Shown: positions 23,847 to 51,405, numbered from the stretch's first letter. The stretch is DNA of 64,000 nt from an uncultured Thermoplasmata archaeon (GCA_964462425.1 CAYWYD010000003.1:5918-69917), one strand, 5' to 3'. Notes: generated by a model not told the origin, from the sequence alone. A program made the numbers and translations.

Positions 23847-26054
23847 TTATCGGTATATATCGATACCATTAAAATCTTTCTTTTTATTTATGCTCTTTTG
23901 CATCTCTTCTTCCCATTCCTCGTACAACTGTAGGACTTCCTCGTCAACAGAAGGGGTAGTTTCCTCGATACTGCTTTCAAAGTGCTTCATCAGTACTTCT
24001 TTAGAACCGTCTTTTATCGCCTTCAGCCCGGCTTCTCTACAGATCGACTCTATATCAGCCCCGACAAAAGAATCGGTTTTGTCCACAAGAGATTTAAGAT
24101 CGACTTCATCGGACAAAGGCATATGTTGGGTATGAACCTCGAATATCTTTTTTCTAGAAGTCCTATCTGGTACTGGCACTAAGAGTTGATGATCGAACCT
24201 GCCAGCTCTCAAAAGAGCGTTGTCGAGCCTGTCCGGGCGGTTCGTCGCAGCGATGACCACCACGTCGGTGGTTCTCTCGATCCCGTCCAAACTGGTCAGG
24301 AGCTGATTTACTACTCTATCCGTCGTACCGTCGGAGGTGTTCCTACCTCGTTCTGGCGCTATCGCATCTAGTTCATCTAAGAATACTATCGAAGGGGCCG
24401 TCTGACGAGCCTTTTTGAACAACTCTCTTATCGCCTTTTCGCTCTCACCGACCCACTTGGATAATAACTCAGGTCCTTTCACCGAAATGAAGTTGGCATC
24501 GCTTTCGTTCGCGATAGCCTTAGCCAAGAGAGTTTTTCCTGTGCCTGGAGGGCCATAAAGGAGGATACCTTTTGTAGGTTCGACTCCCATCTTTATGAAA
24601 GATTCTGGATCCGTGATAGGTCGTTCTACAGAGTCTTTGAGTTTTTCTTTGATCTCCTCTAGCCCGCCAACATCGTTCCAAGATACCTGAGGTATCTCCA
24701 CTATTATTTCTCTCAAACTGCTGGGTTCTACTTCCTTCAAGGCCTCAAGGAAATCTTTTTTCTTGACTTCCATCTCTTCTAGGACTTCCCTCGGAAGCGG
24801 TTCGTCCAGGTCTATATCGGGTAGATACCGCCTCAACGAACGCATCGCCGCCTCTTTCACCAACGATTCTACATCCGCGCCGGCGAAACCGTGCGTCATC
24901 TCCGCTAAATTCTCGAGTTCTACATCTTTAGACATCGGCATTCCCCGGGTGTGTATTTTCAGTATCTCCACTCTATCTTGCCTGTCGGGCAAACCTATCT
25001 CGATCTCCCTGTCGAATCTACCGGGTCTTCTCAAAGCAGGATCGACCGCATCGACTCTGTTTGTAGCTCCTATCACTATCGTTTCTCCTCTATTCGTTAA
25101 ACCGTCTAGTAAAGTCAGGAGCTGGGCGACGACCCTCCTTTCTACCTCCCCTTTCACGTCGTCTCTTTTCGGCGCAATAGAATCCAGCTCGTCTATGAAT
25201 ATTATCGAAGGTGACTGATCTTTAGCCTCTTCAAATATATCTCTCAATTTCTCCTCGCTCTGTCCGTAGTACTTAGACATGATCTCAGGGCCCTGGACGG
25301 AAAGAAAGTTGGCTCCGGCCTCGTTGGCAACGGCTTTAGCTATCCAGGTCTTACCGGTCCCGGGCGGACCATGGAGAAGCACCCCCTTTGGAGGATCTAT
25401 ACTCAACCTGTCGAAGAGTTGAGGATGCTTCAAGGGGAGTTCGATCATCTCACGAACTCTCTTGAGTTCATCGTCTAATCCACCTACATCTTCGTAAGTA
25501 ACCCTTGTAGTCGATATTACTTCCCCTTCACTAACCGGTTCTTCCTTCACGATGACCTCTGTTCCTTTCTTGATAACCACTGCCATATCCACGGGATTAG
25601 TGGAGATGACCATGAAAGGCACGCTGCCGCCCATCAGGGCTATGCCCGGAACTACGATAGCGTCACCGGCGATCATCGGCCTTTTTAATAACCTCTTTTT
25701 CACGTAAGAATCTATTCCCTCGCCAAATTTCAACCTATTCCCCTCTTCGATTATGGGGGCGATAACTACTTTTTGTGCTTCTTGAACCGATATCTTGGTC
25801 ACTTTTACCTTATCGCCGATAGAAACCTTCGCGTTCTTCCTGACCAGGCCGTCGATCCTGATGATTTCCTTACCTTCATTCTGTGTCGATAGACTGAAGA
25901 CCTTAGCGACCGTCTCCTTTTCCCCCTCGATTTTTACTACGTCTCCCACGTCAACATCGAGTTCCATCCGGGTTTTCGCTCCCAGTCTCGCTCTGCTCCG
26001 ACCGATGTCTTCCTGAGGCGCTTCGTTGACCTTCAAAACTTTTTCGGCAGCCAT
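23847..26054 (-). CDS. cdc48: AAA+ ATPase Cdc48/VAT (two AAA modules)
   Basis: There is an N-domain, then two Walker A motifs ([17 protein letters not shown] and [17 protein letters not shown]), Walker B motifs (IIFIDELD and IVFLDELD) and second-region-of-homology arginines. Confidence 0.92.
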
Positions 26055-34468: not shown

Positions 34469-37400
34469 TCACAATTTGTACTCGTCTTCACATACCTTTT
34501 GGTCGATCCGGTCCATCTCTCTTTCCAATTCGGGCAGTGTCATTCTCCTTTCTTTTTCTTCTTCGCCTCTCTTTCTCCAAGCTTCTACACCAAGCCTCGC
34601 GATAACTATGGCTATGACTACACCTGCAAAAACAAGATAATAGGGGATATCGAACCTTCTTATCTCAAAATTTAAGCTCACTATTTTGCTGTTACCGGCT
34701 CTGTCCCAAGCCCTCACCTCCACGGTGTGATCGCCTGCCGAGAGTCCGGCAAAAGTGTATTCCGTGTTTTCACCAGCGAGTATCCATTCTCCTTGGTCTA
34801 GCCGTATCTCGTAGTACTCTATCCCGCTGGGCTCGGCTTCGCCCTGCCATTCCACGGTGACGAATCGATCACTCAACTCCGTTCCTCCAGAAGGAGATGT
34901 GATCGTGATCTGGGGTGAGGCGGTATCGATAAGGAAAGTCACGCTTTCTTTACCCACTCTCTCACTCTTATCTACCGCCTTGACCTCAACGGTGTACTCG
35001 CCGTCCTCCAATCCCTCTAATACGTATTCGGTGGAATCCCCTATATTTATCCACTCTTCATCGACCTTTATCTCGTAGTGCTTTAGCTCGACATTTCTCT
35101 CTATATTCTCAAATACCCATCTGACGGTCACCTCGTCGGTGGAAAATATGGAGCCATCATCCGGCGAGACTATTCTGACCGGCGGCGAGGTGGCATCGAC
35201 GGTCACCGTAACGGTATCGGTCTCTCTCCAACCGGTTTTATCCCAGGCTCTAACCGAGATCTCGTACTCGCCGTCCTGGAGATCGGTCAGTTTGAATTCC
35301 TTAGCACCTCCAACATTTTCCCAATGTCTATCACAGACCCTGATCTCGTGAAAATCCGCATTTTCGGATGTCCACTTGACCGTGAAATTATCTGACCTTA
35401 TCACCTGATCTTCTTCAGGCGATATTATCTCGATCTTTACCGTCTTCACGCTGAACTCTATGCTGTCAGAATCGGAATTACCGTTATCGTCTTCCGCTCT
35501 TACCTGAACTTCGTAGTCACCGTCCTCTAGATCATCATACCTATGTTCACCTTCCTCATCGGGTTCTATCCACTTTCCTTCCTCGTCTCCTGGCCCGTCC
35601 AACTTTATTTCCACATCTTCGGCGTTCTCTACCAACCACTCTATATCGACTGAAGACCTTCTCTCCGTACTCCCGTTCTCCGGAGAGGTGATCTCGACAT
35701 TTATCCCCGGGTCTACTTGAAAATCGACACTGTGACGTGATCCTATACCGGCGTCATCTTCTCCTCGGACTTTAACTGTATGCTCGCCCTTCTGTAAGTC
35801 CTCGAATGTGTGAGTTCTTTCATCATCGACATCGATCCATTCTTCCTCGTTCAACCTGATCTCGTAATCTATTTCACCTTCTTCACCTTTTGAAGCCCAA
35901 CTAGCCGTCACCTCGGAAGAGTAAACCGTTTCTTGCTCACTAGGTTGCACTATATGTGTTCTAAATTCCTCAACAGGGTCACGTTTTACCAACGGATATC
36001 TATCTTCGCTCTCGTTTCCAGGGATCCCGTAGGACCTGTTCCATATCCCACTATCTCCCACTTCGTGAGAACCTGGATATCTATCCTTGTAGTCCGACCA
36101 ATAATTCCCTTCCTCGCCGTCGTCCCAAGAGTTATTTTTGTTATCGTAAGCCTGTCCTTCTATCTCCGCATCCCCTATTTCATCGCTGTAGAGCTCATTA
36201 TGATATATGTGATTGGGTTTGGAGCGTGTAAGATACACTCCATAAACGTGATTGTTCGAGATATTGTTCCCGAAAACAATATTCTTTTTGGAAGAGGACA
36301 TATAAACCCCGGGCCAACTGTTATTGTATATGTGGTTCTCCGCTATCACGTTTCTATCGGAATTCACCATGTAATAACCGGTGGTGCTGTTATAGAGAGT
36401 GTTGCTTTCCAAAACATTCCTATTGGAGTACCGGAGAGTGATGCTCTGCATCTGTTGGGTTACGGTGTTCTCTACGATTCGATTGTTGTCGGAAAAGCCC
36501 AAAAGTATTCCTATATCTCCGTCCTCGATCTTCTGATCTTTAACGACCATATCGGTACAATTGGCAAGGATGATCTGTGAAGCGTCTTCAGTGATGGTCT
36601 CGCCGCTCACATCTTTTCGATAAATGATGGGTTTTCCATTGACCGTATTGGACTCATCTATAGAATGGGTGTTCCAATGCTCCACCGACCTCCCCCAGAA
36701 GTGCAGGCTATCATCGATCAATTCGTTATCCTCGAAAGAGTTGCTCTCGGAAGAAAACAGGTATATGCCGTAACTATCACTGGAAACGATCCGATTACCT
36801 TCGATTTCGTTGTCGTTGGAACGTCCGATCCGCATTCCGTACCACCGGCTATGATTGATCACGTTATCATATAAACGATTCTTCTCAGAGTGTGTCAGAT
36901 AGATACCGTAATTATCATTGAAAGATTGAGTACCGCTGAGCGTGTTATCGGTGGACTTGTAAACATATATACCTATGTCATTGGTGAACAGCTCAGTTTT
37001 TTCTACGCTGTTCTTTTCTGACTCTCTGAGTTCTACTCCCTTACCGTTGTAGGACGCGTTGTTTTCAGATAGGTGGTTCTCGGGAGAAGAACTGAGCACT
37101 ATACCACGATCATGGTTGCTCACCGAATTTTCCATGAGCTCGTTGCCGTCGGATTTTTCCAACCATATCCCTCGACCATAGACCGGATAGTGAGACTTTT
37201 TAACGTGATTTCCCTCTATCTTGTTTCCAATGGATGAGGAGACATATATACCGACATGATTGTTTACCATTTTATTATCGACTATCACATTTTCAGTGGA
37301 CTCCTTCAAATGGATGCCGTAGGAGTTGAAAGAAACTTTGTTGTTCGCTAGCCTTCCGTTTTCGGTGCCGTTCAGGACCACACCGCTGTTGCCTGAACTA

Positions 37401-40400
37401 GCGTCTCCACTGCGATTCGCATCGTGGAGTTTATTGTTCTTCACTATGAAGTGATCCGAGACTTCTTCGAATGTCAAAGCCGAGCTTTCTTCCTTACCGC
37501 TCAAATCATACCATTCGATCACATAGGGATCTTCTTCTTCGCCAGTTCCTGGCCATCCTTCTTGTCCCGCCATCTCCTCCAATTCTTCGTTTCCGGTGAT
37601 GTGGATAGGATCTCTCTCTAGATAAAAGGAAAAGTCGATAGATTCGGTCACATCATCATCGATAGACCTGACTTCGATCCTGTGTTCACCGCCGTTCATC
37701 TCCTCGAAAACGTGATCGGTCTCGTTTCCAACATCTATCCAGTCCTTGTCGTTCAGCCTGATCTCGTGACCTTCAATATTATATGATATCCACCTCACCT
37801 CGAGTTCGCCCTCACCTGTGACCTCTTTGTCCTCGGGGAAGGTGATGTTCAGATAGGGTGAAGTGTCCACGGAAAAGTTCACGCTCTCGGTCACGGTCTC
37901 CGAAGTCGACCTCACGTCTAAGATATGATCTCCATCTTCGACTCCTTCGAACACGTAACTCGTATCCCCACCTACGTCTATCCAGTCCTTATCATTCAAC
38001 CTGATCTCATGGCCAGTTACATTATAAGAAGTCCACGCTGCTTCAACATCGCTCTCCCGTACGATCTCACCTTCCGCCGGAGATTCGATCCTTATATGCG
38101 GGTCAGTTTTAACGGTAAAAGTCACCGAGTTTTTGACACTCTTTTTATCCCCTACCGCTTTGATCTCTGCGGTATATTCACCATCGTCTAGGCCTTCAAA
38201 AGTGTACGAGTCGTTTTCTCCAACGTCTATCCAATCTTCCTGGCCCAATCTTACCTCGTGATATTGACTCCGTTTAGAGATCCATTTTAACTTAACGTTA
38301 GATCCCCTGATGATCTCTCCCTCCTCGGGAGATATTATTTCTGCACTAGGAACCGCGGCGTTGTAAACCGCCAAAGCGTAATCCTGGTTAGGTCGACTGT
38401 CATTGTTCGCATCCGCCGGGACGTTCGTTCCTATCACTCTCACCGTATAAGTTCCATCTTCGACCTCTTCAGACGGGATGTAAACGTTCTCCACGTTGTT
38501 CGTGTCGTCCCGACCGTCGCCGTTGGGATCGAAATCTTCCATCGCGGGAGCATCGGGTCGAGTCCAGCCCTGATCGAAGGCGTTACCATTGTAAACGCTC
38601 CCGTCGGGTGCCTTTACTTCCAGATCAAGGTCGTTCTTCAATGTTCGATTATCTCCACTTAAGGCGTTCTTGTCCGTCCATCCTAATGTTATCTTCAGTG
38701 GTTCACCCTCTCTTTCCCGCTTTACCTCGTACTCCTCCACATCGCCGGTTTCTAACGATGTTTTTTGATCTTCGAGCATGAAAGGAACCGGATCGTCTTT
38801 AGGATACTCCAGTTTAGATATGTCCACCATGCCCCAGCCTTCGTCCTTGTTCGGTATCGGCCCGGTCTCGCAGCCTCCGGAGTCGAGATCGTGGGCGGTA
38901 TTTATCAGCAGAGATCTTACCATAGCGGGACTGGGTTTTTCACCGAAGTTCTCATCGTACCACTCCACCACGACAGAAGCGGCTCCCGCTACAGCGGGAG
39001 TCGACATGGAAGTACCGGACATCCATTCGTAAGTGGCTCCTTTTGAATAGGCCGGGTGATCCAGGGAAAGTACGTTTTCTCCCGGAGCGACGACGTCGGG
39101 CTTCACCCGATTATCCTGCGTCCAACCTCTAGAACTGAATCGCGATACACTAGCAGGGTTTTCAGTATCTCCACCCCCATAATCGCTGCCGTCGGGAACA
39201 TAACTCTCAGTAGCTCCGATAGTTATCACGTTCTTAGCATTACCGGGGCTCCCGATGGTCTGCTCCTGCGCCCCTGAATTTCCCGCGGAAACGGTTATCA
39301 CCATGGGCTGATTTCCGGTCGTATTTCTATCAGCGTCTCTCACCGCTTGATCGAATATCTCGTCGGACGCAGTATATTCGCCGGCGGTGGTAGCTCCCCA
39401 CGAGTTGGTGTGAACGTAGGCGTCGGCTTCCTGCTTCGGTACTTCGATTATATCGTAGTAATCGGGATCCACCCATCCTGGATCGAATATCTTTGCAGCG
39501 TAGATTTTAGATTCGGAAGCCAAACCCTGAGCCATGTAATAGGGTCCGAAACCGGGATACTCGCCTTTCTCTCCACTTCCTTGATAGGTGTTTCCAGCCG
39601 CCGATCCAGTGGTGTGGGTCCCGTGGCCGTGACTGTCGCTCCAGTCGTCATCGTCAAGGTCTTCGAATCCGTGCCCCCCTATCACCCTACCGGTCAGGTC
39701 CGGATGTCCCGCGTCACCGATAGTTCCGTTTCCTATCCCGGTGTCTCCCACAGCTATGGTCACGTTCTCTCCAGTATAACCGAGTTGGTTGATGTAAGCA
39801 CCAAAATCACCGTATTTCCTGTAAGGAGAACCGATGTCGTCCTGCTCGTCGTCCATTATCCACGCCCCGCCGCCTATGATCTGACTTTCGATCTCGGAGT
39901 GGAGTTCGGGCTCCCGGTACTGGGAGATATAGTACACTTCTTTCATCCTAGCTAAGTTTCTCAGCTCCGCCTTAGATGTGATATTGAGAGTGAGACCGTG
40001 CTCGAATCTATCGAGTTCTTGATGATCTGAAACCGGAAGTTTTGATGCTATCGACATCACATCATCGGTGCTGAGCTCGGGATTGAATTTGACATTGACT
40101 TTGTCGGGTTCGAGTTGAGGATCAAACTTGTAAGCGGGGTGATAGATCCCGACCCAGTCCACGAACGACAAGTCTTCAACTTCTACCGCGGTCTCCGGCG
40201 TCATGCTCACTTCATAGGCGTAATTGGGGATGTAATTGATCACCTCCACGCCTTTATTCTCCAGTTCCTCTCTCCAATCGGGACTCACCGGGCCGAGCAT
40301 GTGGACGATGTAAAGTCCTTCCTTCCCGGGTTCGTATTCTTCGATGCTGAGATCGGAAGCGATCTCGGGTTCTTCTTCGGTGAAGTCGAAAGTATGTTCT

Positions 40401-40708
40401 TTGACAGATATCTCCGTACGAGCCGGTAATATATTGACCTCTACACCTCTAGACTTCAACCCATGAGCTAACTTTCCGTTTGTCTTTACTAGAGCAAATT
40501 CACCGTAGTCATGGATGACGCTGAGGTCTAAGCCACTCAAAAGGCCTTCATTCCTCAACCCTTCCATTTCCACCAATATGATCTGTTCGTCCGACTTCAT
40601 ATTTGATCTCGAGATGGGATCGATACTTCCAGCAGCAGAAACGAAGGTGGCCCCTATGATCAGAAGCGAAGATAAGAGGGTCAGTACTTTCACGTTCAGA
40701 TTTCTCAT
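34469..40708 (-). CDS. Giant (2079 aa) cell-surface protein: signal peptide, propeptide-like region, S8 subtilisin-like protease, Ig/FN3-like repeats, parallel beta-helix (PbH1/NosD-like) array, further Ig-like repeats, C-terminal TM anchor
   Basis: The S8 catalytic triad sits in VAVGDTGIGNG (D322), HGHGTHTTGSAAG (H362) and GTSMSTPAVAGAAS. There are many N-x-I-x-x-N/GIYL beta-helix rungs. Three copies of EIRLNDKDWIDVG...YTxEV... FN3-like modules are present. The C-terminus reads YYLVFAGVVIAIVIARLGV followed by RKRGEEEKERR. Confidence 0.8.
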   Translation of the reverse strand: MRNLNVKVLTLLSSLLIIGATFVSAAGSIDPISRSNMKSDEQIILVEMEGLRNEGLLSGLDLSVIHDYGEFALVKTNGKLAHGLKSRGVEVNILPARTEISVKEHTFDFTEEEPEIASDLSIEEYEPGKEGLYIVHMLGPVSPDWREELENKGVEVINYIPNYAYEVSMTPETAVEVEDLSFVDWVGIYHPAYKFDPQLEPDKVNVKFNPELSTDDVMSIASKLPVSDHQELDRFEHGLTLNITSKAELRNLARMKEVYYISQYREPELHSEIESQIIGGGAWIMDDEQDDIGSPYRKYGDFGAYINQLGYTGENVTIAVGDTGIGNGTIGDAGHPDLTGRVIGGHGFEDLDDDDWSDSHGHGTHTTGSAAGNTYQGSGEKGEYPGFGPYYMAQGLASESKIYAAKIFDPGWVDPDYYDIIEVPKQEADAYVHTNSWGATTAGEYTASDEIFDQAVRDADRNTTGNQPMVITVSAGNSGAQEQTIGSPGNAKNVITIGATESYVPDGSDYGGGDTENPASVSRFSSRGWTQDNRVKPDVVAPGENVLSLDHPAYSKGATYEWMSGTSMSTPAVAGAASVVVEWYDENFGEKPSPAMVRSLLINTAHDLDSGGCETGPIPNKDEGWGMVDISKLEYPKDDPVPFMLEDQKTSLETGDVEEYEVKREREGEPLKITLGWTDKNALSGDNRTLKNDLDLEVKAPDGSVYNGNAFDQGWTRPDAPAMEDFDPNGDGRDDTNNVENVYIPSEEVEDGTYTVRVIGTNVPADANNDSRPNQDYALAVYNAAVPSAEIISPEEGEIIRGSNVKLKWISKRSQYHEVRLGQEDWIDVGENDSYTFEGLDDGEYTAEIKAVGDKKSVKNSVTFTVKTDPHIRIESPAEGEIVRESDVEAAWTSYNVTGHEIRLNDKDWIDVGGDTSYVFEGVEDGDHILDVRSTSETVTESVNFSVDTSPYLNITFPEDKEVTGEGELEVRWISYNIEGHEIRLNDKDWIDVGNETDHVFEEMNGGEHRIEVRSIDDDVTESIDFSFYLERDPIHITGNEELEEMAGQEGWPGTGEEEDPYVIEWYDLSGKEESSALTFEEVSDHFIVKNNKLHDANRSGDASSGNSGVVLNGTENGRLANNKVSFNSYGIHLKESTENVIVDNKMVNNHVGIYVSSSIGNKIEGNHVKKSHYPVYGRGIWLEKSDGNELMENSVSNHDRGIVLSSSPENHLSENNASYNGKGVELRESEKNSVEKTELFTNDIGIYVYKSTDNTLSGTQSFNDNYGIYLTHSEKNRLYDNVINHSRWYGMRIGRSNDNEIEGNRIVSSDSYGIYLFSSESNSFEDNELIDDSLHFWGRSVEHWNTHSIDESNTVNGKPIIYRKDVSGETITEDASQIILANCTDMVVKDQKIEDGDIGILLGFSDNNRIVENTVTQQMQSITLRYSNRNVLESNTLYNSTTGYYMVNSDRNVIAENHIYNNSWPGVYMSSSKKNIVFGNNISNNHVYGVYLTRSKPNHIYHNELYSDEIGDAEIEGQAYDNKNNSWDDGEEGNYWSDYKDRYPGSHEVGDSGIWNRSYGIPGNESEDRYPLVKRDPVEEFRTHIVQPSEQETVYSSEVTASWASKGEEGEIDYEIRLNEEEWIDVDDERTHTFEDLQKGEHTVKVRGEDDAGIGSRHSVDFQVDPGINVEITSPENGSTERRSSVDIEWLVENAEDVEIKLDGPGDEEGKWIEPDEEGEHRYDDLEDGDYEVQVRAEDDNGNSDSDSIEFSVKTVKIEIISPEEDQVIRSDNFTVKWTSENADFHEIRVCDRHWENVGGAKEFKLTDLQDGEYEISVRAWDKTGWRETDTVTVTVDATSPPVRIVSPDDGSIFSTDEVTVRWVFENIERNVELKHYEIKVDEEWINIGDSTEYVLEGLEDGEYTVEVKAVDKSERVGKESVTFLIDTASPQITITSPSGGTELSDRFVTVEWQGEAEPSGIEYYEIRLDQGEWILAGENTEYTFAGLSAGDHTVEVRAWDRAGNSKIVSLNFEIRRFDIPYYLVFAGVVIAIVIARLGVEAWRKRGEEEKERRMTLPELEREMDRIDQKVCEDEYKL

Positions 40709-40866: not shown

Positions 40867-41196
40867 GTGGGGTTTTCAACCGTGGCAGTGGATGAGGTAA
40901 AAAAGATAAAGAAGGCGGAAAAAAAGGCTCTCGAAAGAGTGAAAAAGGCAAAAAAAGAAGCCGAGAAGATGGTGGAAGAAGCTGAAGAAGAGGCGCAGCA
41001 GGAAAAGGAAGACGAACTCTTCTCTCTCAAAAAAGAACTTGAGGAGAAGAAAGAAGAAGCGAAAGAAGAGGCCGAAAAGAAAGCGGTAGAGATAAGAGAA
41101 GAGGGTGAAAAGGAAGTAGAAAAGATCAAGAGATCCACCAAAGAAGACATTTCAGAAGCCGTCGATCACGTGATAAAAAGAGTTATGGAGGTATGA
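40867..41196 (+). CDS. atpH: A-type ATP synthase subunit H
   Basis: 109-aa K/E-rich coiled coil immediately upstream of atpI. The start is GTG. The TATA box TTTATAAT lies at 40818-40825. Confidence 0.6.
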   Translation: MGFSTVAVDEVKKIKKAEKKALERVKKAKKEAEKMVEEAEEEAQQEKEDELFSLKKELEEKKEEAKEEAEKKAVEIREEGEKEVEKIKRSTKEDISEAVDHVIKRVMEV

Positions 41197-41200
41197 AGCG

Positions 41201-43393
41201 GTGTTCTTTCCGGAGCGCATGAAGGATCTCACCATTCTGGTCCATGATGATCACGTGGAAGACCTTATCGACTCAATACATGAGAGAGGTATAGCTGAAA
41301 TAAGTGACCTCGAGAGGGATAAAGAAGTCAATGAGGTCGTTGAGCCCATGGGCATTTCGGAGCGGATAGGTGAGTTGACGAATTATGATATCAAGTTATC
41401 CTCTATCCTTGATATCTTCGATCGATTAGAACCCGAAAAGAGCGTGATCAAAGAATTCGTCTCTCCCGAAGAGATTAAGAAAACGAGTAGAGAAGAGAAG
41501 GGTCTAAACCAAGTGATTTCAGAGATAGACGAGATGTTCGAAGAACACGGCGAGAAGATATTAGAGTTCGATGAAAAATTGAATAATATAAATAAAAAAA
41601 TGGAGGACCTCGAGCAGTTGAAAAAAGACTTGGAATTGATCTCTTTTCTAGATCTAGAACTGAGTCATCTAGGAGAATCAAAGTTCTCCGTGATAGATGT
41701 CGGCATAACAACGGATCCCTACGAGTTCAAAAAAAATATCGAGGAGTTAGAGTCGTATTTTTATGAAGTGGAAAGGACCCGGGAAGAGGAAGAGAGGTAC
41801 GTGGTGATAGCTGCGGCTTTAATAAAGGATAAAACTGAATTCCAATCTATATTGAGGCAGAGTGACGTCCGGCCTCTGAACTTGAAGGACGTCGAAGGCA
41901 CTCCGAAAGAAGCATTGGAAACTTTTTCTTCCGAAATGAAGGAACTAAAAGAGTCTAAAGAAGATGTTTTGGGAAAATTGAAGTCTCTCAAAGAGGATCA
42001 CGAGAAAGAATATCGGGCTTTAAAGGAAGAACTCGATATACACCGTGAGAAAAAGGAGATTGTTCAGAGATTCGGAAACACGGAAACAACCACGGTGTTG
42101 AAAGGATGGGCCCCGGAAAAAAATACTGAAGAAGTCGAAGAAACTGTGGAAAATGCCAGCGACGGCTATGCAGAAGTGATTACCGAAGAACCCGAGGATC
42201 CTGACGAGGTGCCCACCAAGTTAGACAATCCCAAGATGATAAAGCCTTTCGAGCTTCTAACTCACATGTTCGCACCTCCGCGGTACGACGAGATAGATCC
42301 AACTTTTATCTTGGCTCCAGCCTTCGTCATCTTTTTCGGCCTGATGCTGGGAGACGCTATTTACGGGATCTTGATAATTTTGACCTCCGTTATACTCCTT
42401 CAGGGCATCGGGAAGGTCGAGGAAGGGACAAGAAATTTTTCATTCGTGTTATTGGGAGTCGGTATAAGTACATTTATCTTCGGCATCCTCCAGGGGGGGT
42501 ATCTAGGTCCGGCGCAGGAAGGTCACACCAATCTTTTCGGCAGGTTGGGATTAGATTTCATCAACGAGATGGCCGTCTTAAAAACATTGCAGGGAGAAGG
42601 TCCTTTGGTACTTCTTATAATCTCCTTATTGATAGGTTTGTTCTATCTGAACGCCGGAATATTTCTCCAGTTCGTGAGGTATTTGAAGGATAGGAACTAC
42701 CGAGAGATCCTGAAAGAGAGCGTTTCATGGTGGACACTTCAGGCCGGGGGGGCCATACTCATATCGGGTTATCTTTTCGGATGGGATTATTTTTTCGGAA
42801 CGGAGGCGATGTTTGAACTCACAAGGACGGTCAACATCATAGGAGCTATTTTGACAGGCATCGGCCTTCTACTCATGGTGGTTCGGGCTAAGGGACTATC
42901 ATTTTTCGAGCTGACCGGATTCATAGGAGACTTTCTTTCATTCTCGAGGATACTCGCATTGGGCTTAGCTACTTCTGGGATAGCTTTGACCGTTAACGTG
43001 CTAGCGGATCTTGTTTCGAACAACTCTATCAATCTTCCGATCGCCGCGGCGATACTCATCGGCGGCTTGGCTTTAGTATTGAAAGGATTCAAAGATTCCA
43101 GCAAGCTCGAACAGACTTTGGGATCGATGGTTTCCCTTTTAGGTATTATCAGTTTCATGGGATACGCCGGGATGATAAACCCTAAAATACCGTTCTACTT
43201 CTTCGGCCTTGTGGTCATGATCGTGGGTCATCTGATCAACGCGGTACTTCAAGCTTTAGGCTCTTTCGTTCACTCTTTAAGGTTACAGTACGTGGAATTC
43301 TTCAGTTATTTCTACGAAGGCGGAGGGGCTGAATACGAACCTTTTAAGGCTGAAAGAGAGCATACCAAAATAAAAGAAGAGGTGAAAGGATGA
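41201..43393 (+). CDS. atpI: A-type ATP synthase subunit I (a-subunit, stator/ion channel)
   Basis: 730 aa. The N-terminal half is a soluble coiled coil and the C-terminal half has about 7-8 TM segments with a conserved Arg region. The stop overlaps the atpK start as ATGA. Confidence 0.85.
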   Translation: MFFPERMKDLTILVHDDHVEDLIDSIHERGIAEISDLERDKEVNEVVEPMGISERIGELTNYDIKLSSILDIFDRLEPEKSVIKEFVSPEEIKKTSREEKGLNQVISEIDEMFEEHGEKILEFDEKLNNINKKMEDLEQLKKDLELISFLDLELSHLGESKFSVIDVGITTDPYEFKKNIEELESYFYEVERTREEEERYVVIAAALIKDKTEFQSILRQSDVRPLNLKDVEGTPKEALETFSSEMKELKESKEDVLGKLKSLKEDHEKEYRALKEELDIHREKKEIVQRFGNTETTTVLKGWAPEKNTEEVEETVENASDGYAEVITEEPEDPDEVPTKLDNPKMIKPFELLTHMFAPPRYDEIDPTFILAPAFVIFFGLMLGDAIYGILIILTSVILLQGIGKVEEGTRNFSFVLLGVGISTFIFGILQGGYLGPAQEGHTNLFGRLGLDFINEMAVLKTLQGEGPLVLLIISLLIGLFYLNAGIFLQFVRYLKDRNYREILKESVSWWTLQAGGAILISGYLFGWDYFFGTEAMFELTRTVNIIGAILTGIGLLLMVVRAKGLSFFELTGFIGDFLSFSRILALGLATSGIALTVNVLADLVSNNSINLPIAAAILIGGLALVLKGFKDSSKLEQTLGSMVSLLGIISFMGYAGMINPKIPFYFFGLVVMIVGHLINAVLQALGSFVHSLRLQYVEFFSYFYEGGGAEYEPFKAEREHTKIKEEVKG

Positions 43394-45807
43394 GTTTGTT
43401 CGAAGTGGATATGGATTCAAAAGCACTGATCTTCCTGATCGTTTTGACCACGACTCTACTGCTGTCAGGCATCATAGCGACACAGGGACTAGAAAATGCG
43501 GTCGCGCAGGCTCAAGAGGACGAAGTAGAAGGCAGAGTAGACATACTGGTCTATCATAGAGAGGATGAGGAATATAGAAAAGAGGGTGATGAGATCAAAA
43601 GGTATATGTCCGGCGACTATGAAAATATAACCTTTTCATATAGGAAAGGGGATATACCAGAAGATCGTCAGTTGGAAAATATCTCTTGGAATTTTAAGTT
43701 ATTACAGTTTGATAGTACTGAAGATGACGACGATACCTTTAACAAAATTAATAAAAGTTTGAACAAGGGTGAAGTCGATGAAGGGTTGAAAGATGCTTTT
43801 GATCAGGAAGATATTGAATTAAATCAAAGTGCAGAACTTGAAAAAGAAGAAGAGGGAATTTGGGTCCTCATTGACGGCGAGGAAAAATACCAGATAGAGA
43901 AAGGAGAAAAAGAATTTGAAGTATATAGAGAGGAAGTCTTGGATGATAAATTAGAGAATATTTTTGATTTGAATCGCACAGATTATGAGGAAAGTTTTAA
44001 TGAGAGTTTGAACCAGAGAGAAATTGATGATAAGTTAAAAGAAGCTTTTGAGGAAAATGACTTCAAAATAGTAGGAGACAAACCACAACTCAAAAAAGAA
44101 GATGGTGTGTTTTGGATAATCGATGAGAATATCAAGAAATACAGGATAGAAAAAACCGAAAATGAGTTCAAAGTATATAGAGAGTACCTAGAATTCAAAT
44201 TTGAAAGGGCGGGAAAACATCACCTCACTTTAGATTTGGAATTTGAAAATGAAAACAAAACTTACAGAGACGAACTATCTATAGAGATAGAGAAGGATGA
44301 AAGAGGAACTTTCCTCACGGCTATAGGGGCAGGTCTAGCCGTCGGCATAGCGGGTATGGGCGCCGGTATCGGAGTCGGTATCGCAGGTTCGGCAGGAGCC
44401 GGGACTATAGCGGAGAAACCGGACAAATTCGGAAAATGTTTGGTTTATCAGGCCCTTCCACAGACTCAGGCTATCTACGGCTTACTGATAGCTGTCCTGT
44501 TACTGCTGTTTACAGGGGTCATTGGAGAGGGAACAACTGTTCCACTAACCTTAGGTGTGGCTTCTCTAGGCATCGGCTTAGCCGTTGGTATCGCCGGTCT
44601 ATCCGCCATAGGCCAGGGCATCGCATCTTCTGGAAGCATAGCGGCCTACAGCGAGAAGGAGGAATTATTCGGGAAGGGCATGGTATTTTCCGTCTTACCT
44701 GAAACTCAAGCTATCTACGGACTGCTAGTGGGCATACTGATCATGGTATTTACCGGGTTGTTGGGCGGCAATATCTCAGCCGATCTACTGGGCGACAAAG
44801 GTTTGGGAGTTGCCATGATAACTATCGGTGGAGGTTTAGCCGTAGGCGTAGCCGGTCTCTCCGGTATAGGACAGGGCATCGCCTCGGGAGCCGGTATAGG
44901 CAGCGTCGCGGAAAAAGAGGACCTCTTCGGGAAAGGTATGGTCTTCTCTGTATTACCCGAAACTCAAGCCATTTACGGCCTACTGATAGCGATCTTACTT
45001 ATGGTCTTCTCCGGACTGCTCGGAGGTGGAGCGATAGACGCTATGGCTGGATACTCGGGCTTTGGTCTGGGTCTTATCGGCATAGGTGCGGGCCTAGCCG
45101 TAGGCGTAGCCGGTCTCTCCGGTATAGGTCAGGGTATCGCAGCGGCTAGCGGTATAGGCAGCGTCGCGGAGAAGGAAGAGGTCTTCGGTAGAGCGATGGT
45201 CTTTTCTGTGTTACCTGAAACTCAGGCCATCTACGGCATGCTGATCGCCATATTACTGATGATATTCAGCGGTCTGTTAGGAGGAGATGGTGTCTTGATC
45301 GGCGAAAATACTAGAAGTATACAGATGTTCTTCGGATTGGTCGGTGTAGGGGCTGGCCTTTCAGTCGGTGTAGCCGGTCTCTCTGGAATAGGTCAAGGCA
45401 TCGCCTCGGGCAGCGGGATAGCTACTGTCGCGGAAGATGAGCAGATGTTCGGAAGAGGGATGGTCTTTTCCGTATTACCTGAAACTCAAGCTATCTACGG
45501 TATGCTGATCGCCATATTACTGATGGTCTTCAGCGGGATGATAGGTGGTTCGATACCTCCAGAGAATGATCCCACGTTATCCGGTATTCAGATGGGAATC
45601 GCAGCGGTTGGTGCCGGTCTCGCTATAGGTATAGCCGGCGTGTCCGGCGTAGGTCAAGGTATCACCTCGGGTTCCGCTATCGCCGCCGTGTCAAAGCGTG
45701 AAGAGACCTTCGGTAAGGGCATGATATTCAGCGTGATGTCCGAAACGTTTGCGATCTTCGGCCTGCTGATAGCGATATTCATAATCGTGTTCCTAGGGTT
45801 CATGTGA
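43390..45807 (+). CDS. atpK: A-type ATP synthase proteolipid subunit K/c. It is a fusion of an N-terminal TM, a ~300-aa acidic repeat domain and six covalently linked c-hairpins.
   Basis: There are six tandem units of GAGLAVG(I/V)AGLSGIGQGIA...FGKGMVFSVLPETQAIYGLLIAILLMVF. Unit 1 has PQTQ in place of PETQ. The start is supported by the ATGA overlap with atpI. Confidence 0.85.
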   Translation: MSLFEVDMDSKALIFLIVLTTTLLLSGIIATQGLENAVAQAQEDEVEGRVDILVYHREDEEYRKEGDEIKRYMSGDYENITFSYRKGDIPEDRQLENISWNFKLLQFDSTEDDDDTFNKINKSLNKGEVDEGLKDAFDQEDIELNQSAELEKEEEGIWVLIDGEEKYQIEKGEKEFEVYREEVLDDKLENIFDLNRTDYEESFNESLNQREIDDKLKEAFEENDFKIVGDKPQLKKEDGVFWIIDENIKKYRIEKTENEFKVYREYLEFKFERAGKHHLTLDLEFENENKTYRDELSIEIEKDERGTFLTAIGAGLAVGIAGMGAGIGVGIAGSAGAGTIAEKPDKFGKCLVYQALPQTQAIYGLLIAVLLLLFTGVIGEGTTVPLTLGVASLGIGLAVGIAGLSAIGQGIASSGSIAAYSEKEELFGKGMVFSVLPETQAIYGLLVGILIMVFTGLLGGNISADLLGDKGLGVAMITIGGGLAVGVAGLSGIGQGIASGAGIGSVAEKEDLFGKGMVFSVLPETQAIYGLLIAILLMVFSGLLGGGAIDAMAGYSGFGLGLIGIGAGLAVGVAGLSGIGQGIAAASGIGSVAEKEEVFGRAMVFSVLPETQAIYGMLIAILLMIFSGLLGGDGVLIGENTRSIQMFFGLVGVGAGLSVGVAGLSGIGQGIASGSGIATVAEDEQMFGRGMVFSVLPETQAIYGMLIAILLMVFSGMIGGSIPPENDPTLSGIQMGIAAVGAGLAIGIAGVSGVGQGITSGSAIAAVSKREETFGKGMIFSVMSETFAIFGLLIAIFIIVFLGFM
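44308..45804 (+). repeat. Intragenic tandem repeat: six units of ~240 nt, each encoding one c-subunit helical hairpin
   Basis: A near-identical nucleotide block (...ttctccgtattacctgaaactcaagc(t/c)atctacgg...) recurs about every 240 nt. Confidence 0.85.
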
Positions 45808-47946: not shown

Positions 47947-50900
47947 ATGAGAGAGGAAGCAGAAGAGAAGATCAGCAGGATGAAGGAGCCCGAGGACGAA
48001 GAAGAAGGCCGGATCATTCACGTCGCGGGTCCGGTCGTCGAAGCCGACGGTCTCAGAGGAGTCGAGATGTATGAAGTCGTGGAAGTTGGAGAAGAAGGTC
48101 TGATCGGCGAAGTCATCGAACTCGACGAAGACGTTGCGACCATACAGGTCTACGAGGAAACCGGCGGTGTGCGGCCTGGAGAACCGGTCGAAAGGACGGG
48201 AGAACCTCTTTCATTAGAACTCGGTCCCGGCCTGATCGAGCAGATCTACGACGGCATCCAGAGACCGTTAGCGGACATCGCCGAGGAGACCGGCGACTTC
48301 ATCCGCAGAGGCGTAGACGTATCTCCTTTGGACGAAAGCAGGGAGTGGGAATTCAGACCAGAGGTAGAAGAGGGAGACGAGCTGGAACAGGGTGATATCT
48401 TAGGTACCGTAGAGGAAACTAAAACTGTGGATCACAAGGTCATGGTCCCTCCGGGTAAAGGAGGTAAAGTCAAAGAGATCGTATCGGAAGGAGAATACAC
48501 CATCGATGAAACCATCGCGGTTTTGGAGAATGAAGATGGTGAAGAAGAGATAAGCATGAAACAGCGCTGGCCCGTGCGAGTGGGCAGGCCGATTAAGGAC
48601 AAAAAGCAGCCCGGCGAGCTTTTGGTTACTGGACAGAGAGTTTTAGACACTTTCTTTCCTCTCGCTAAGGGAGGTACCGCGGCTATCCCTGGGGGCTTCG
48701 GGACGGGGAAGTGCGTCACGGGAGACACCCCCGTTTTGTTCGCTGACGGCTCGAAGGAACCTATAGGAGAGGTGTACGAAGAGTACAAGTCTGAGGGTGA
48801 AAAGAAGGTCGATAACGAAGAAACACTGATCGAACTGGAGGAACCTCTCGATATACTCTCTATGGAGGACGGAAGGATAGCCGAAAAGGAAGCTACTTGC
48901 CTCTACAAAGGTAAGACAGATACGACTGTCGTGATAAATACGAAATCTGGGCGAGAAGTCGAACTCACACCTATCCATAAATTGTTCGTTCTGACTCCAG
49001 ATATGGAGATCACAGAGAAGCCCGCGGGAAAGATCGAAGAAGGAGAGACTCTACTAGCTCCAAGAAGACTTCCTATAGAGGAAAAAAGTGAAGCTGAAAG
49101 GCTGGTCGTGGAAGACCTTCTGCCCGAAAAGAGAGTCCACGGTGAAGACTTCGATAAAACGGTTGAAGCCATAGGTGACCTCGAAGAAAAGTTCGGCAGT
49201 AGGAAGACACTCGCCGAAAGATTAGATATCAGCGAAGACGTTCTTACCGAGTACGCTCTAGGAAGGAACAGACCTAAAGCGAAGGTCGCCGAGAAGATAT
49301 TTGAAGAGAAGGGGATCGATCATGAAATAAGGAACGTTAAGAGTGAAAGGAGATCTACACCCATCCAGGTACCGTCGAAATTAGACGAAGACCTTGCCGA
49401 ACTTCTAGGACTTCTACTTGGAGACGGCACTGTTAAACCGTCTACCGTCCATTTCTACAATAACGATGAAGAACTCCTGTCAAGGGTGGATGAGCTTTTA
49501 AGCGGGCTTTTCGATGTGGAAATGGAGAGGGAACACGCCCGAACGGTGGATTCGACGAAAGTCAACTGTAAAACTTTGAGAGATCTTCTTGTTTCCCTCG
49601 GCTTTCCGGAAGAGAACAAGTCGAGAAATTGTAGCATTCCAAACAAGGTGCTTAAAAGCGGAGAGGACGTGATCGCGGCCTTCGTTAGAGGTTATTATCT
49701 CGCGGACGGAAGTTTCTCCAAATACGAAGTCGAGATAAACACTTCCAGCGAGGAGATGGCCAGCGATCTGACTTATGCTTTAACGAGGATCGGCACGCCT
49801 CCAAGACTCGGTTCAAAAAACACATATGCGAATAAAAGCTACAGGATAAGGATCTCTGGAGAAGAGCTCGAGAATTTCTATGAGAAAACAGCTGCGGACC
49901 ATCAAAAATATGAAAAGATCGAGAAATATTTGGAAAAGGATAGCAAACATTTCAGAGGAATCAATTCGGTAGAAGTGTCGCCCGAACTCGTGGAAGAGAA
50001 GTTCGAAGAGAGCGGGATAACGAGAAAAGAGTTTAAAGAGAACGGCATAAAGATAGCGAATTACACGACTCAGGAAGAAAAAATGAGCGTTCCAGTGTTC
50101 AGGAAGTTCTCCTCTATGACTGCTGACGATGATCTGGTAAAAATGGCGGAGAACCATTTGGATCATTTCTTACCCGATCCGGTCGAATCCGTCGAAGTGA
50201 AAGATGAAACCAAGGATGTTTACGACTTGACAGTGCCGGAAACCCACAACTTCGTAGGAGGTAACTCACCGATGGTACTCCACAACACGGTAATTCAGCA
50301 TCAATTGGCCAAATGGAGTGACGCCGACATAGTCGTTTACGTCGGCTGTGGAGAGAGAGGAAACGAGATGACCGAAGTTCTAAGAGATTTTCCGGAATTA
50401 GAAGATCCGTGGAGCGGAGAATCGCTGATGAAGAGGACCGTCCTCATCGCGAACACAAGTAACATGCCGGTGGCGGCGAGAGAGGCTTCCGTTTTCTCCG
50501 GCATCACTATAGCTGAATATTATAGAGATATGGGTTATAACGTTGCGTTGATGGCGGATTCAACTTCCCGTTGGGCGGAAGCTTTGAGAGAGATCTCCGG
50601 GAGGCTCGAAGAGATGCCCGGAGAGGAAGGTTTCCCGGCTTATTTGGCCTCTGAGTTAGCTTCCTTTTACGAGAGAGCCGGTATCTGTGATCTTTACGGG
50701 GGAAGAGAAGGCTCAATATCGGTTATAGGTGCGGTCAGTCCTTCTGGAGGCGATTTCTCCGAGCCGGTAACACAGAACACCCTGAGGATAGTGCAGGTCT
50801 TCTGGGCTTTGGATACCGAGCTGAAGAACAGGAGACATTTCCCGGCTATCGATTGGTTGACCTCTTATTCCCTCTACCTCGACGAGGTCAGCGACTGGTG

Positions 50901-51405
50901 GAAAGATAACGTCAACGAAAACTGGAAGTCGCTGAGGAGAGAGACGATGCGGCTTTTGGAGAAAGAGTCGGAACTTGAAGAGATCGTTCAGCTGGTAGGA
51001 CCCGATGCACTTCCACCCTCCGACCAGTTCGCACTCCAGGCCGCTAGAGTGATAAGAGAAGACTTCCTGCAGCAGAACGCATTTCACGACGTTGACACGT
51101 TCTGCGAACCGGAGAAACAGTTCAGGATGCTGCAGATGATGATGCGGTTCTATGCGACCGGGCAGGAAGCTGTGGAAGAGGGTGTTCCGGTCGATGATCT
51201 ATCAGAGATGGACGTGCTCGAAAAGATCAGCAGGATGTCCAATCATCCGTCCGAAGAATACGAGGATAGGTTCAACGAGATACAGATGGAGATGAACGAG
51301 GAATTCCAAGAGTTGGAAGAGTCCCTGGAACTATCTTCTCCGCTTGAAGGCGAGGAGCCAGTAACCGAAACGGATGAAGAAAATTCTCCAGAGGAGGAGG
51401 TATAA
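47947..51405 (+). CDS. atpA: A-type ATP synthase catalytic subunit A, interrupted by an in-frame intein in the P-loop
   Basis: [11 protein letters not shown]... The P-loop PGGFGTGK is split from [11 protein letters not shown] by a 525-aa insertion. C-terminal A-subunit motifs are intact. Confidence 0.92.
48712..50286 (+). mobile_element. Intein with LAGLIDADG homing-endonuclease domain, inserted at the VMA-a (P-loop GK|T) site
   Basis: It starts with Cys ([10 protein letters not shown]...) and ends ...VLHN with Thr as the +1 residue. The two LAGLIDADG blocks are [14 protein letters not shown] and [12 protein letters not shown]. Splicing would restore GGFGTGKTV. Confidence 0.85.

Follow-up and report, generated by a model that had tools for sequence, protein, structure and literature searches.

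The 6.2-kb gene described here codes for a 2079-aa protein that is probably, taking all parts of the reading jointly, a type I membrane protein carrying a protease on a membrane-anchored stalk. The best reading of its role is that of a cell-envelope protease displayed on a stalk, for which subtilase autotransporters, lactocepin, and the tetrabrachion/STABLE protease are analogues. It is a well-formed, fairly ordinary member of a large uncharacterised surface-protein family. Within this family, which is lineage-specific and found in halophilic Thermoplasmatota, it is the 'beta-helix' member and present as a single copy; the design of the family sets one conserved protease head on many kinds of stalk and membrane anchor.

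The single ORF claimed in an earlier note on this DNA was borne out by the ORF list, the translation, and a protein of the public collection (P0001) identical to the 2079-aa product. The frame is intact and starts with ATG. The features are given below, with positions counted in the window (the whole 64,000-nucleotide stretch that was analysed).

34469–40708, minus strand: complete gene, 2079 codons plus stop (TGA at 34469–34471), from the ORF list and translation
40631–40708, minus strand: Sec-type signal peptide, aa 1–26 (MRNLNVK-VLTLLSSLLIIGATFV-SAA, with the putative cleavage point before G), from hydropathy
39809–40630, minus strand: pro-region-like extension, aa 27–300, three alpha/beta modules, from AlphaFold2 secondary structure
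38789–39808, minus strand: S8 subtilase catalytic domain, aa 301–640, from PF00082, motifs, PDB 1wmd/5fax, and Foldseek
39743–39745, 39623–39625, 39278–39280, and 39008–39010, minus strand: codons of catalytic Asp322, His362, oxyanion Asn477, and Ser567, respectively
38351–38788, minus strand: KP-43-type C-terminal beta-sandwich (jelly-roll), aa 641–786, from the KP-43/SubHal alignment and AlphaFold2 strands at pLDDT 70–90
37616–38350, minus strand: Ig-like modules 1–3, aa 787–1031, from module boundaries, AlphaFold2 beta-sandwiches, and Y_Y_Y/Big_13/CarboxypepD_reg matches
37970–38011 and 37727–37768, minus strand: two copies of HEIRLNDKDWIDVG within Ig-like modules 1–3
35966–37615, minus strand: right-handed parallel beta-helix (NosD/CASH-like), aa 1032–1581, ~17–19 rungs
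34658–35965, minus strand: Ig-like modules 4–8, aa 1582–2017, from Y_Y_Y, Ig_J, Big_13, Big_7, Glucodextran_B, and fn3 matches
34577–34657, minus strand: single C-terminal TM helix, aa ~2018–2044 (RFDIPYYLVFAGVVIAIVIARLGVEAW), from hydropathy and an AlphaFold2 helix at model residues 1145–1171
34472–34576, minus strand: charged tail, predicted to be cytoplasmic, 35 aa, RKRGEEEKERRMTLPELEREMDRIDQKVCEDEYKL-COOH, from comparison with the tails of P0002–P0011
40709–40866, no strand: divergent intergenic region of 158 bp between the S8 gene and atpH, sequence read directly
40867–41196, plus strand: atpH

The gene lies beside an ATPase (atp) operon, a multi-TM protein, a PaaK-like ligase, and the proteasome. 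Its adjacency to the atp operon is conserved in three of four loci, and the divergent layout is kept in L001 and L080. The ATPase operon, the multi-TM protein, and the PaaK-like ligase gave no functional clue. The intergenic region contains an AT-rich TTTAATTA box ~50 nt upstream of the ATG and a GGAG ~12 nt upstream, which are putative promoter and ribosome-binding elements.

Regarding topology, hydropathy over the whole protein found two hydrophobic segments only, at aa 4–29 and aa ~2018–2044. The first, with its S-A-A|G putative cleavage site, supports the signal peptide proposed earlier, and the sequence of this peptide holds neither a twin-arginine motif nor a lipobox Cys. The second is followed by WRKRGEEEKERR..., in agreement with the proposal of a TM segment and a charged tail. 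Neither a PGF motif nor a TIGR04126 match was found at this end, which carries a 35-aa tail instead of an archaeosortase A signal, again as first described. The chain starts with a Sec signal peptide and is anchored by one C-terminal TM helix, and the tail would face the cytoplasm.

In the head of the protein, Peptidase_S8 (PF00082) covered aa 313–626 over the full profile (1–288; E 1.4e-40, 139.9 bits, cut-off 21.8), and the active-site motifs D322 (DTG), H362 (HGTH), N477 (SAGN), and S567 (GTSM) were invariant across 27 homologs. A profile score above the curated threshold, the Asp-His-Ser order, and the oxyanion Asn place it in family S8, with the complete triad that the earlier note had read from the translation. 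The alignment to KP-43/SubHal (1wmd, 5fax) ran unbroken from aa 309 to 766 against chain residues 17–424 (E about 1e-50; 4e-51 for 1wmd) and spanned all catalytic motifs. With a catalytic domain directly joined to a homologous jelly-roll beta-barrel, the head belongs to the KP-43 subfamily of S8A. Foldseek aligned it to 1wmd with a TM of 0.78 and 31% identity, on an AlphaFold2 model of moderate quality built from 27 aligned sequences (mean pLDDT 65, parts of the catalytic core <50). Judging from its sequence, the head is most likely an active subtilisin-type protease.

Between the signal peptide and this head, AlphaFold2 placed alpha/beta modules at about aa 41–93, 131–188, and 203–263, of which the first two are weakly similar (hhalign E 2e-4). 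No Pfam model matched this region, and no Inhibitor_I9 match was seen at E<=10 for aa 28–315. A phmmer search of 1.84 billion representatives returned 2196 matches at E<=1e-3, nearly always N-terminal in proteins of 1000–4300 aa. Foldseek alignments against unprocessed pro-subtilisins extended over 520–640 columns, and the fold-level resemblance to a subtilisin propeptide is only suggestive. Because the region lacks detectable I9 sequence similarity, the 'propeptide' label draws on where the region lies, on its type of fold, and on analogy. Profile, sequence, and structure evidence agree with the earlier proposal to the extent of a pro-region-like extension. It may act as a propeptide/chaperone and be removed autocatalytically, as in the KP-43 family and other subtilases; characterised KP-43-subfamily enzymes are secreted and activate themselves through propeptide cleavage (PMC11982257).

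The stalk contains eight Ig-like modules of 81–90 aa each. The earlier note had placed such Ig/FN3 modules after the beta-helix; the modules are real and five do follow it, but three precede it. They fit Y_Y_Y (122 bits), Big_13, and Ig_J better than fn3 (PF00041), which scored 44.6 bits over the whole protein (cut-off 25) with no individual stretch above the cut-off. AlphaFold2 predicted five beta-sandwiches for modules 4–8, and Foldseek matched the arrays to cell-surface Ig/FN3 arrays such as those of RPTP sigma, GhpA, and the S-layer protein SbsB. On these models, the predicted fold of the modules is an Ig-like beta-sandwich.

The long parallel beta-helix, earlier estimated at ~20 rungs, was recovered by several approaches. 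NosD and Beta_helix profiles matched at E 2e-62 and 8e-42, nine para_beta_helix repeats were found, and the N-x-hydrophobic-x-x-N motif occurred 17 times inside aa 1032–1581 and once elsewhere in the protein. AlphaFold2 modelled about 17–19 rungs at pLDDT >90, with a loop insertion near aa 1335–1380 and a conserved C-terminal cap. Profile match and repeated rungs of ~22 residues identify a right-handed parallel beta-helix of the CASH type, and profile searches support both the S8 and the beta-helix assignments.

Altogether, the membrane-distal N-terminus bears the KP-43-like subtilase with its complete, conserved catalytic apparatus, and three Ig-like modules, the NosD-like beta-helix of ~17–19 rungs, and five further Ig-like modules lie between head and membrane. 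This array could form a rigid spacer of roughly 40–50 nm if extended, with glycan binding as a further possible role of the beta-helix. On this stalk, the protease might degrade extracellular protein for the cell, process other envelope proteins, or both. The functional class suggested in the earlier note, a surface protease or adhesin, is still the best one; the 'sheath' and 'S-layer' parts of that suggestion were not supported.

The protein is not alone in its lineage. Full-length orthologs (P0002–P0005) share 51–56% identity over 99–100% coverage with the same architecture, and orthologs of the same length at this identity occur in at least four MAGs. In the wider family, 656 proteins matched at E<=1e-10, most of them sharing only the first ~38% of the query. 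Hundreds of paralogs carry the ~800-aa protease head at about 50% identity with differing stalks and anchors; PQQ propellers, coiled coils, PKD, CARDB, or beta-helices follow the head. As anchor, family members use a TM helix, a PGF-CTERM-like end, or a soluble domain at the C-terminus, and 87 of 120 family proteins have a TM segment at the end. Some paralogs end in PGFT...YYKK, and Heimdall/Loki/PGF-CTERM matches were sub-threshold. This membership in a large paralogous family with swapped stalks and anchors was absent from the earlier note.

It is possible, if rather unlikely, that the protein serves first of all as a structural part of the envelope or as an adhesin, for example as an S-layer-like canopy or a fibre for cell-cell or cell-substrate attachment. 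Self-maturation would then be the main task of the S8 head, and binding to glycans or other cells that of the beta-helix and Ig modules. The stalk, with its eight Ig-like modules and beta-helix, does make up more than 60% of the protein, its structural neighbours include the S-layer proteins SbsB and EA1, the grappling-hook protein GhpA, and the beta-helix adhesin PfbA, and some paralogs have a coiled-coil stalk followed by a TM segment, like tetrabrachion or SlaB. The SPEARE proteins of Nanohaloarchaeota, which join a serine protease at the N-terminus to adhesion domains and a C-terminal TM, were proposed to act in host contact (PMC6642349). However, the head is the best conserved part (61–66% vs. 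46–50% for the stalk) and the only one common to the whole family, which suggests that the protease is the common function. Moreover, N-glycosylation sequons showed no significant enrichment (24 vs. 18 ± 4 expected), and there was no evidence for lattice formation or high abundance.

The beta-helix could have an enzymatic or adhesive function of its own, its structural neighbours including lyases, epimerases, depolymerases, and the adhesin PfbA. A bifunctional protein, in which the helix is a polysaccharide-active enzyme of the pectate-lyase-like superfamily (lyase, epimerase, or glycosidase) and both glycan and protein in extracellular polymers are degraded, seems improbable. A match to NCBIfam AlgG was weak (3.4e-8, 32.6 bits) and far short of its cut-off of 700. 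No solved beta-helix enzyme was detectable by sequence, and the DPHD motif of AlgG-type enzymes was not seen in the beta-helix when the translation was read by eye. Among 12 orthologs, the invariant beta-helix positions are chiefly ladder residues (Asn, Gly, and Ser) and aromatics of the cap, which are structural.

Pfam and NCBIfam gave no match for the 35-aa tail. Its motifs L-x-ELE-x-E and terminal [DE][DE]YKL are conserved within the beta-helix subfamily, as judged from the tails of P0002–P0011; the L, E, Y, and L positions were invariant or nearly so, and among the loci examined the motif was found only in orthologs. A bolder reading, to which we give little credence, is that the S8-headed giant proteins jointly form the main surface coat of halophilic Thermoplasmatota, a modular protease-tipped canopy of one head on interchangeable stalks with at least three anchoring modes. 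In the beta-helix member, the strictly conserved tail (L-x-ELE...[DE][DE]YKL-COOH) would then be a docking signal that links this one protein, encoded next to atp, with a partner in the cytoplasm for its placement or turnover.

The locus had also been described as prone to assembly error and phase variation through near-identical internal DNA repeats. The sole point in favour is the 14-aa stretch HEIRLNDKDWIDVG, which was indeed found twice (aa 900–913 and 981–994) and is identical at the protein level, but the DNA of the two copies agrees at only 36 of 42 nt. The two modules carrying it share 49% protein and 63% DNA identity, the Ig modules among themselves are 53–63% identical in DNA, and the longest exact repeat within the gene is 14 nt. 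TRF found no array within the gene; all it listed there was an 8-nt unit running over 23 nt, at the minimum score. Since the internal repeats are this diverged, there is no basis for either claim, and with colinear orthologs of 2078–2093 aa in at least four independent MAGs, the idea that the locus is misassembled or a phase-variable contingency gene is effectively refuted. Least probable of all and likewise effectively refuted is the reading that the beta-helix marks a NosD-type accessory protein acting in the maturation of copper centres or N2O reductase: the TIGR04247 (NosD_copper_fam) score of 106.5 bits fails the family threshold of 300, no nosZ, nosF, or nosY was found among the ORFs scanned near the gene and elsewhere in the window, and NosD, the periplasmic component of NosDFY, is a ~400-aa partner of an ABC transporter that has only the fold in common with a module within a 2079-aa protease.

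The preferred reading, a protease displayed on a stalk, can be set beside several known systems. Lactocepin PrtP and the C5a peptidase ScpA are S8 proteases of 1100–1900 aa with pre-pro regions, Fn3/Ig-like spacers, and a C-terminal anchor, and the protein described here shows a similar layout of putative N-terminal pre-pro region, Ig-like spacers, and C-terminal cell anchor. The C5a peptidase was detectable by sequence (E about 7e-9), with similarity limited to the S8 core. These Gram-positive cell-envelope proteinases are anchored to peptidoglycan through LPXTG/sortase, carry a PA-domain insert, and are not known to have a beta-helix. The Bacillus enzymes KP-43/SubHal align end to end with the catalytic and jelly-roll domains at about 30% identity, triad and oxyanion Asn kept. 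KP-43 is a free secreted enzyme of 43 kDa, whereas here the KP-43-like unit tips a 2079-aa membrane-anchored protein and is preceded by the ~270-aa three-module N-terminal region without Pfam match.

In the type Va subtilase autotransporter Ssp of Serratia marcescens, an S8 domain sits on a beta-helix of 248 residues (PMC9977779). What the two share is the logic of an envelope-tethered S8 protease that sits on a right-handed parallel beta-helix. In our case, the helix has about 450 residues, is flanked by eight Ig modules, and carries a KP-43-type head; the anchor of Ssp is a C-terminal outer-membrane beta-barrel, whereas here a single alpha-helical TM would span the archaeon's only membrane. 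Pfam found no autotransporter domain, and the C-terminus is an alpha-helical TM with a 35-aa tail rather than a 12-stranded barrel. The likeness is convergent and does not reflect membership.

Among archaea, the tetrabrachion stalk carries STABLE, a protease of the subtilisin family with a proposed role in peptide supply for peptide fermentation and/or the processing of envelope precursors (PMC5744192). Both this Staphylothermus marinus S-layer complex and the present protein hold a subtilisin-family protease outside the cell on a long membrane-anchored stalk. STABLE is a polypeptide of its own that attaches non-covalently to a coiled-coil stalk; in the present case protease and stalk form one chain, and the stalk consists of beta-helix and Ig modules. 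SPEARE proteins are giants of 3300–8500 aa from halophilic archaea (PMC6642349): besides adhesion domains, they have a serine-protease region at the N-terminus and, close to the other end, a TM segment with a cytoplasmic part beyond it. They contain laminin-G and toxin-like domains, and their best-conserved part is a cytoplasmic type III restriction-enzyme domain, in contrast to the 35-aa tail seen here. Pfam found no laminin-G, toxin, or type III restriction-enzyme domains in our protein, and SPEARE membership was rejected.

Asp and Glu together make up 19.7% of the protein, a proportion typical of 'salt-in' halophiles. The relatives with a nameable source come from hypersaline and soda-lake Thermoplasmatota of the Ca. 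Halarchaeoplasmatales (Ca. Natronoplasma, Saliniplasma, Haladaptatiplasma; Great Salt Lake), so the marine Thermoplasmatota invoked earlier do not fit. The only basis for the suggested DPANN link is the label 'Aenigmatarchaeota' that submitters gave to several relatives, and the locus in one MAG so labelled was syntenic with Thermoplasmatota loci. The Ca. Halarchaeoplasmatales are known from MAGs only (review PMC11332174), and no cell-envelope description was found in the literature consulted on the group.

These findings do not overturn current understanding. The gene and its paralogs provide a concrete, testable picture of the Ca. Halarchaeoplasmatales surface, which may carry active subtilases tens of nanometres from the membrane. 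This is relevant to the ways in which these heterotrophs of sediments might obtain peptides. The highly acidic KP-43-type head could merit testing as a salt-tolerant protease. Finally, the protease-on-beta-helix design is a convergent counterpart to bacterial subtilase autotransporters, and the family as a whole is a natural experiment in domain grafting, with one head placed on beta-helix, propeller, coiled-coil, PKD, or CARDB stalks.

The gene is one complete, unbroken ORF of 2079 codons with an ATG start (34469..40708, minus strand), as the earlier note had read it, and the public collection contains a protein identical to its product (P0001). By inference, so long an open frame in DNA of 46% G+C could not have arisen by chance. 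The signal peptide and the C-terminal TM segment proposed for it are the only two hydrophobic segments by hydropathy: aa 4-29 is a Sec-type signal peptide ending S-A-A|G, with neither an RR motif nor a lipobox Cys, and aa ~2018-2044 is followed by WRKRGEEEKERRMTLPELEREMDRIDQKVCEDEYKL. Asp and Glu make up 19.7% of the protein and the net charge is -231, an acidity as expected of a 'salt-in' halophile.

The complete Asp/His/Ser triad was confirmed as well: Pfam placed Peptidase_S8 at aa 313-626 (1.4e-40), and the catalytic residues lie in canonical motifs.

Active-site residues of the protease head, none of which varies among 27 aligned homologs
Asp322: DTG motif, catalytic
His362: HGTH motif, catalytic
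Asn477: SAGN motif
Ser567: GTSM motif, catalytic

KP-43 (1wmd) and SubHal (5fax) aligned in one unbroken stretch with aa 309-766 (E about 1e-50), a range that takes in the jelly-roll after the catalytic domain. The AlphaFold2 model matched 1wmd with a TM of 0.78 (Foldseek). Judged by alignment and model, the predicted protease head is specifically KP-43-like. The Pfam scan at E<=10 gave nothing useful for the jelly-roll region or the C-terminal tail, and no match at all for aa 27-300. For this N-terminal region, AlphaFold2 predicted three alpha/beta modules in a moderate model (mean pLDDT 65); hhalign among all three gave a weak resemblance between modules 1 and 2 and no other signal. Foldseek alignments with unprocessed pro-subtilisins extend over 520-640 columns, long enough to take in a propeptide-like module, and we infer that aa 27-300 are propeptide-like. 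Searching 1.84 billion representatives with the pre-catalytic region alone (phmmer) returned 2196 matches (565 at E<=1e-10, 104 at E<=1e-30), nearly all of them N-terminal in very large proteins.

Behind the head, the stalk consists of a long parallel beta-helix flanked by eight Ig-like modules (81-90 aa), three on its N-terminal and five on its C-terminal side. The FN3-like repeats of the earlier note stand as Ig-like modules: Y_Y_Y leads the Pfam matches (8e-36), Ig_J, Big_13 and Big_7 also matched, and fn3 was weaker, without any individually significant stretch. The beta-helix was borne out by Pfam (NosD 2.3e-62, Beta_helix 7.7e-42), by nine para_beta_helix repeats in NCBIfam, and by the structure prediction for which the same note had called. 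The C-terminal 1200 aa, a segment starting after Ig-like module 1, model well (mean pLDDT 81.5): sandwiches 2 and 3, a beta-helix of about 17-19 rungs with a strand triplet about every 22 residues (pLDDT mostly >90) and a single inserted loop around aa 1335-1380, then another five sandwiches, the TM helix and a disordered tail. PDB sequence searches with the beta-helix and with Ig modules 4-8 found nothing, and N-glycosylation sequons were not significantly more numerous than in shuffles.

The features above are what is shown: topology signals, an active site that is intact and conserved, a head of the KP-43 type, a beta-helix and Ig modules. How they would work together is a proposal. The protein would be exported by Sec and kept anchored by its C-terminal helix, and its N-terminal region would be cut off autocatalytically, by analogy with KP-43-subfamily enzymes, for which such propeptide removal was shown (PMC11982257). 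The Ig and beta-helix array may act as a spacer, with the protease tens of nanometres above the membrane, and the predicted protease would break down external protein and/or mature other envelope proteins. A mainly structural or adhesive protein is a serious but rather unlikely reading, and it is improbable that the beta-helix itself is enzymatically active.

A stalk-held protease has precedents. In the subtilase autotransporter Ssp, a beta-helix of 248 residues carries the S8 domain (PMC9977779), and our protein is convergent with such autotransporters; in Staphylothermus, the tetrabrachion stalk binds the subtilisin-family protease STABLE (PMC5744192). The cell-envelope proteinases of Gram-positive bacteria can be compared as well (C5a peptidase matched at E about 7e-9). 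The overall topology is shared with SPEARE proteins (PMC6642349), whereas their defining cytoplasmic nuclease and their laminin-G domains are lacking here.

The earlier note had also described near-identical internal DNA repeats and, with them, a locus prone to assembly error and phase variation; neither survived. The sequence HEIRLNDKDWIDVG does occur twice (aa 900-913 and aa 981-994), with 36/42 nt identical, and the two modules that hold it share 49% identity at the protein level and 63% at the DNA level. Over all module pairs, DNA identity is 53-63%, the repeat search found copies at 63-71% and no higher, and no exact repeat in the gene exceeds 14 nt; TRF detected no array in the gene, just a 23-nt run of an 8-nt unit at minimum score. 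Thus, mis-assembly or slipped-strand phase variation has nothing to act on here, and orthologs in independent MAGs are colinear and 2078-2093 aa long, which also counts against a chimeric ORF. An assembly artefact or a phase-variable gene is therefore highly improbable.

Four orthologs (P0002-P0005) match over 99-100% of the length at 51-56% identity, and seven others (P0006-P0012) share this architecture except that their N-terminal Ig modules are fewer. Against the four closest, identity is 61-66% in the head vs. 46-50% in the rest. At E<=1e-10, 656 proteins match, and most share with the query just its head, the first ~38%, at identities of about 50%; after it, paralogs carry PQQ propellers, long coiled coils, PKD, CARDB, other beta-helices or modules of similar kind, reaching 3600 aa among the matches listed. 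Tandem paralogs occur in only 4/82 loci, and the window holds no second S8 head. More distant heads (29-37% identity) were found in Verrucomicrobiota, Chloroflexota, Methanosarcinales and others. Our literature search found no paper describing this S8-headed family; the relatives are already annotated publicly as 'S8 family serine peptidase' or 'NosD domain-containing protein'. A NosD-type function can be dismissed, since the family threshold of NosD_copper_fam (NCBIfam) was missed (106 bits vs. 300) and there is no nos gene context.

The suggested marine relatives did not appear: those with a nameable source carry Ca. Natronoplasma, Ca. Saliniplasma or Ca. Haladaptatiplasma names or belong to a MAG from Great Salt Lake. 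Some others, by their isolate names, are probably soda-lake sediment MAGs. The named ones belong to the uncultured order Ca. Halarchaeoplasmatales (Haloplasmatales) of Thermoplasmatota (PMC11332174). The best locus among the GTDB representatives scanned had 63% identity. Several relatives bear the submitter label 'Aenigmatarchaeota'; for one, MAG D5M12_30, this is doubtful because at its locus L001 the atp-operon synteny is that of Thermoplasmatota loci. Close homologs (48-63% identity) lie in MAGs with DPANN or bacterial labels: L001 and L005 (JBKHKA01, 'Candidatus Aenigmatarchaeota archaeon D5M12_30'), L008 ('Dehalococcoidia') and L018 ('Syntrophomonadaceae'), the last two on contigs of only 2.5-2.8 kb. 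These labels are probably misclassification or bin contamination.

The gene is divergent from an A-type ATPase operon across a 158-bp spacer, as in 2/3 orthologous loci examined. Downstream lie a multi-TM protein and a PaaK-like ligase, which differ from the DUF7982-DUF8044-CDC48 set downstream of orthologs in two annotated loci, so we read the context as inherited synteny and not as an operon. That set was put aside as functional evidence, as it is not downstream of the gene in the window. Downstream of P0002 and P0012, a conserved trio encodes a 69-75-aa membrane ORF, DUF7982 (about 250 aa) and DUF8044 (83 aa), with a convergent CDC48 gene nearby; in the window the trio does not adjoin the gene.

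The DUF7982/DUF8044 trio in homolog loci, and other genes of the window
L080, 14249-15564: trio
L081, 13847-15153: trio
L082, 9355-10661: trio
Window 7785..9578 (+): 597-aa protein, PQQ-like beta-propeller and fn3 domain, without protease head; the propeller is of the type that forms the stalk in many S8-headed paralogs (e.g. P0038, P0044)
Window 21294..22520 (+): separate 408-aa protein ending in a double zinc ribbon (PF12773)
Window 23847..26054: CDC48, about 8 kb from the gene
Window 43390..45807 (+): A-type ATPase proteolipid (c/K subunit), 805 aa
Window 47947..51405 (+): ATPase catalytic A subunit, 1152 aa, split by an intein (Intein_splicing aa 264-780) with a LAGLIDADG homing endonuclease (LAGLIDADG_3 aa 574-647)

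The L080 ortholog of the A subunit has an intein too. The proteolipid consists of an N-terminal hydrophobic segment, a very acidic region of ~300 aa with an internal ~55-aa repeat, and six fused c-subunit hairpins; the ion-binding Glu is present in 5/6 (LPETQAIYG or MSETFAIFG) and is Gln in the first (LPQTQ). Its orthologs have 595 aa in L080 (weak PKD matches) and 459 aa in L001, so hairpin number and extra domain vary among relatives.

The family ends in several ways.

C-terminus classes
Subfamily of the gene: TM and conserved ...ELE...EYKL tail
Paralogs: TM and long acidic tail, sometimes with zinc ribbons
Paralogs: PGFT-TM-YYKK, with Heimdall/Loki/PGF-CTERM matches below threshold
Paralogs: soluble domain ending ...GYWLYN...WTVEY

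Among the other ORFs of the window and the 82 loci, the EYKL tail was found in orthologs only. HbYX-type motifs serve proteasome docking and have a penultimate Tyr; such a motif was rejected here, as the Tyr is third from the end. Zinc-ribbon or double-zinc-ribbon motifs occur in the long cytoplasmic tails of P0019, P0026, P0016, P0033 and P0107. The (E/D)xPGFT, TM and YYKK end is found behind the same S8 head in P0034, P0043, P0055, P0056, P0064, P0076, P0079, P0083, P0091, P0098 and P0108; it scored 23.3 vs. a cut-off of 24 for Heimdall-CTERM and 13.7 vs. 24.5 for PGF_CTERM (NCBIfam). It resembles an archaeosortase sorting signal and may be an undescribed CTERM variant of the lineage. Paralogs without a C-terminal TM (P0051, P0057, P0062, P0067, P0072, P0080, P0085, P0086, P0100 and others) end in a conserved domain, ...N(I/L)AYD...F.F.PG.GYW(L/I)YN....V.WTVEY, possibly another kind of module for attachment or secretion.

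The domain families of the protein are all known already, and the novelty is modest. What is new is an archaeal, TM-anchored protease with a predicted KP-43-like head on a beta-helix/Ig stalk, its membership in a large lineage-specific family that combines one head with many stalks and anchors, and the conserved cytoplasmic EYKL tail of the beta-helix subfamily.
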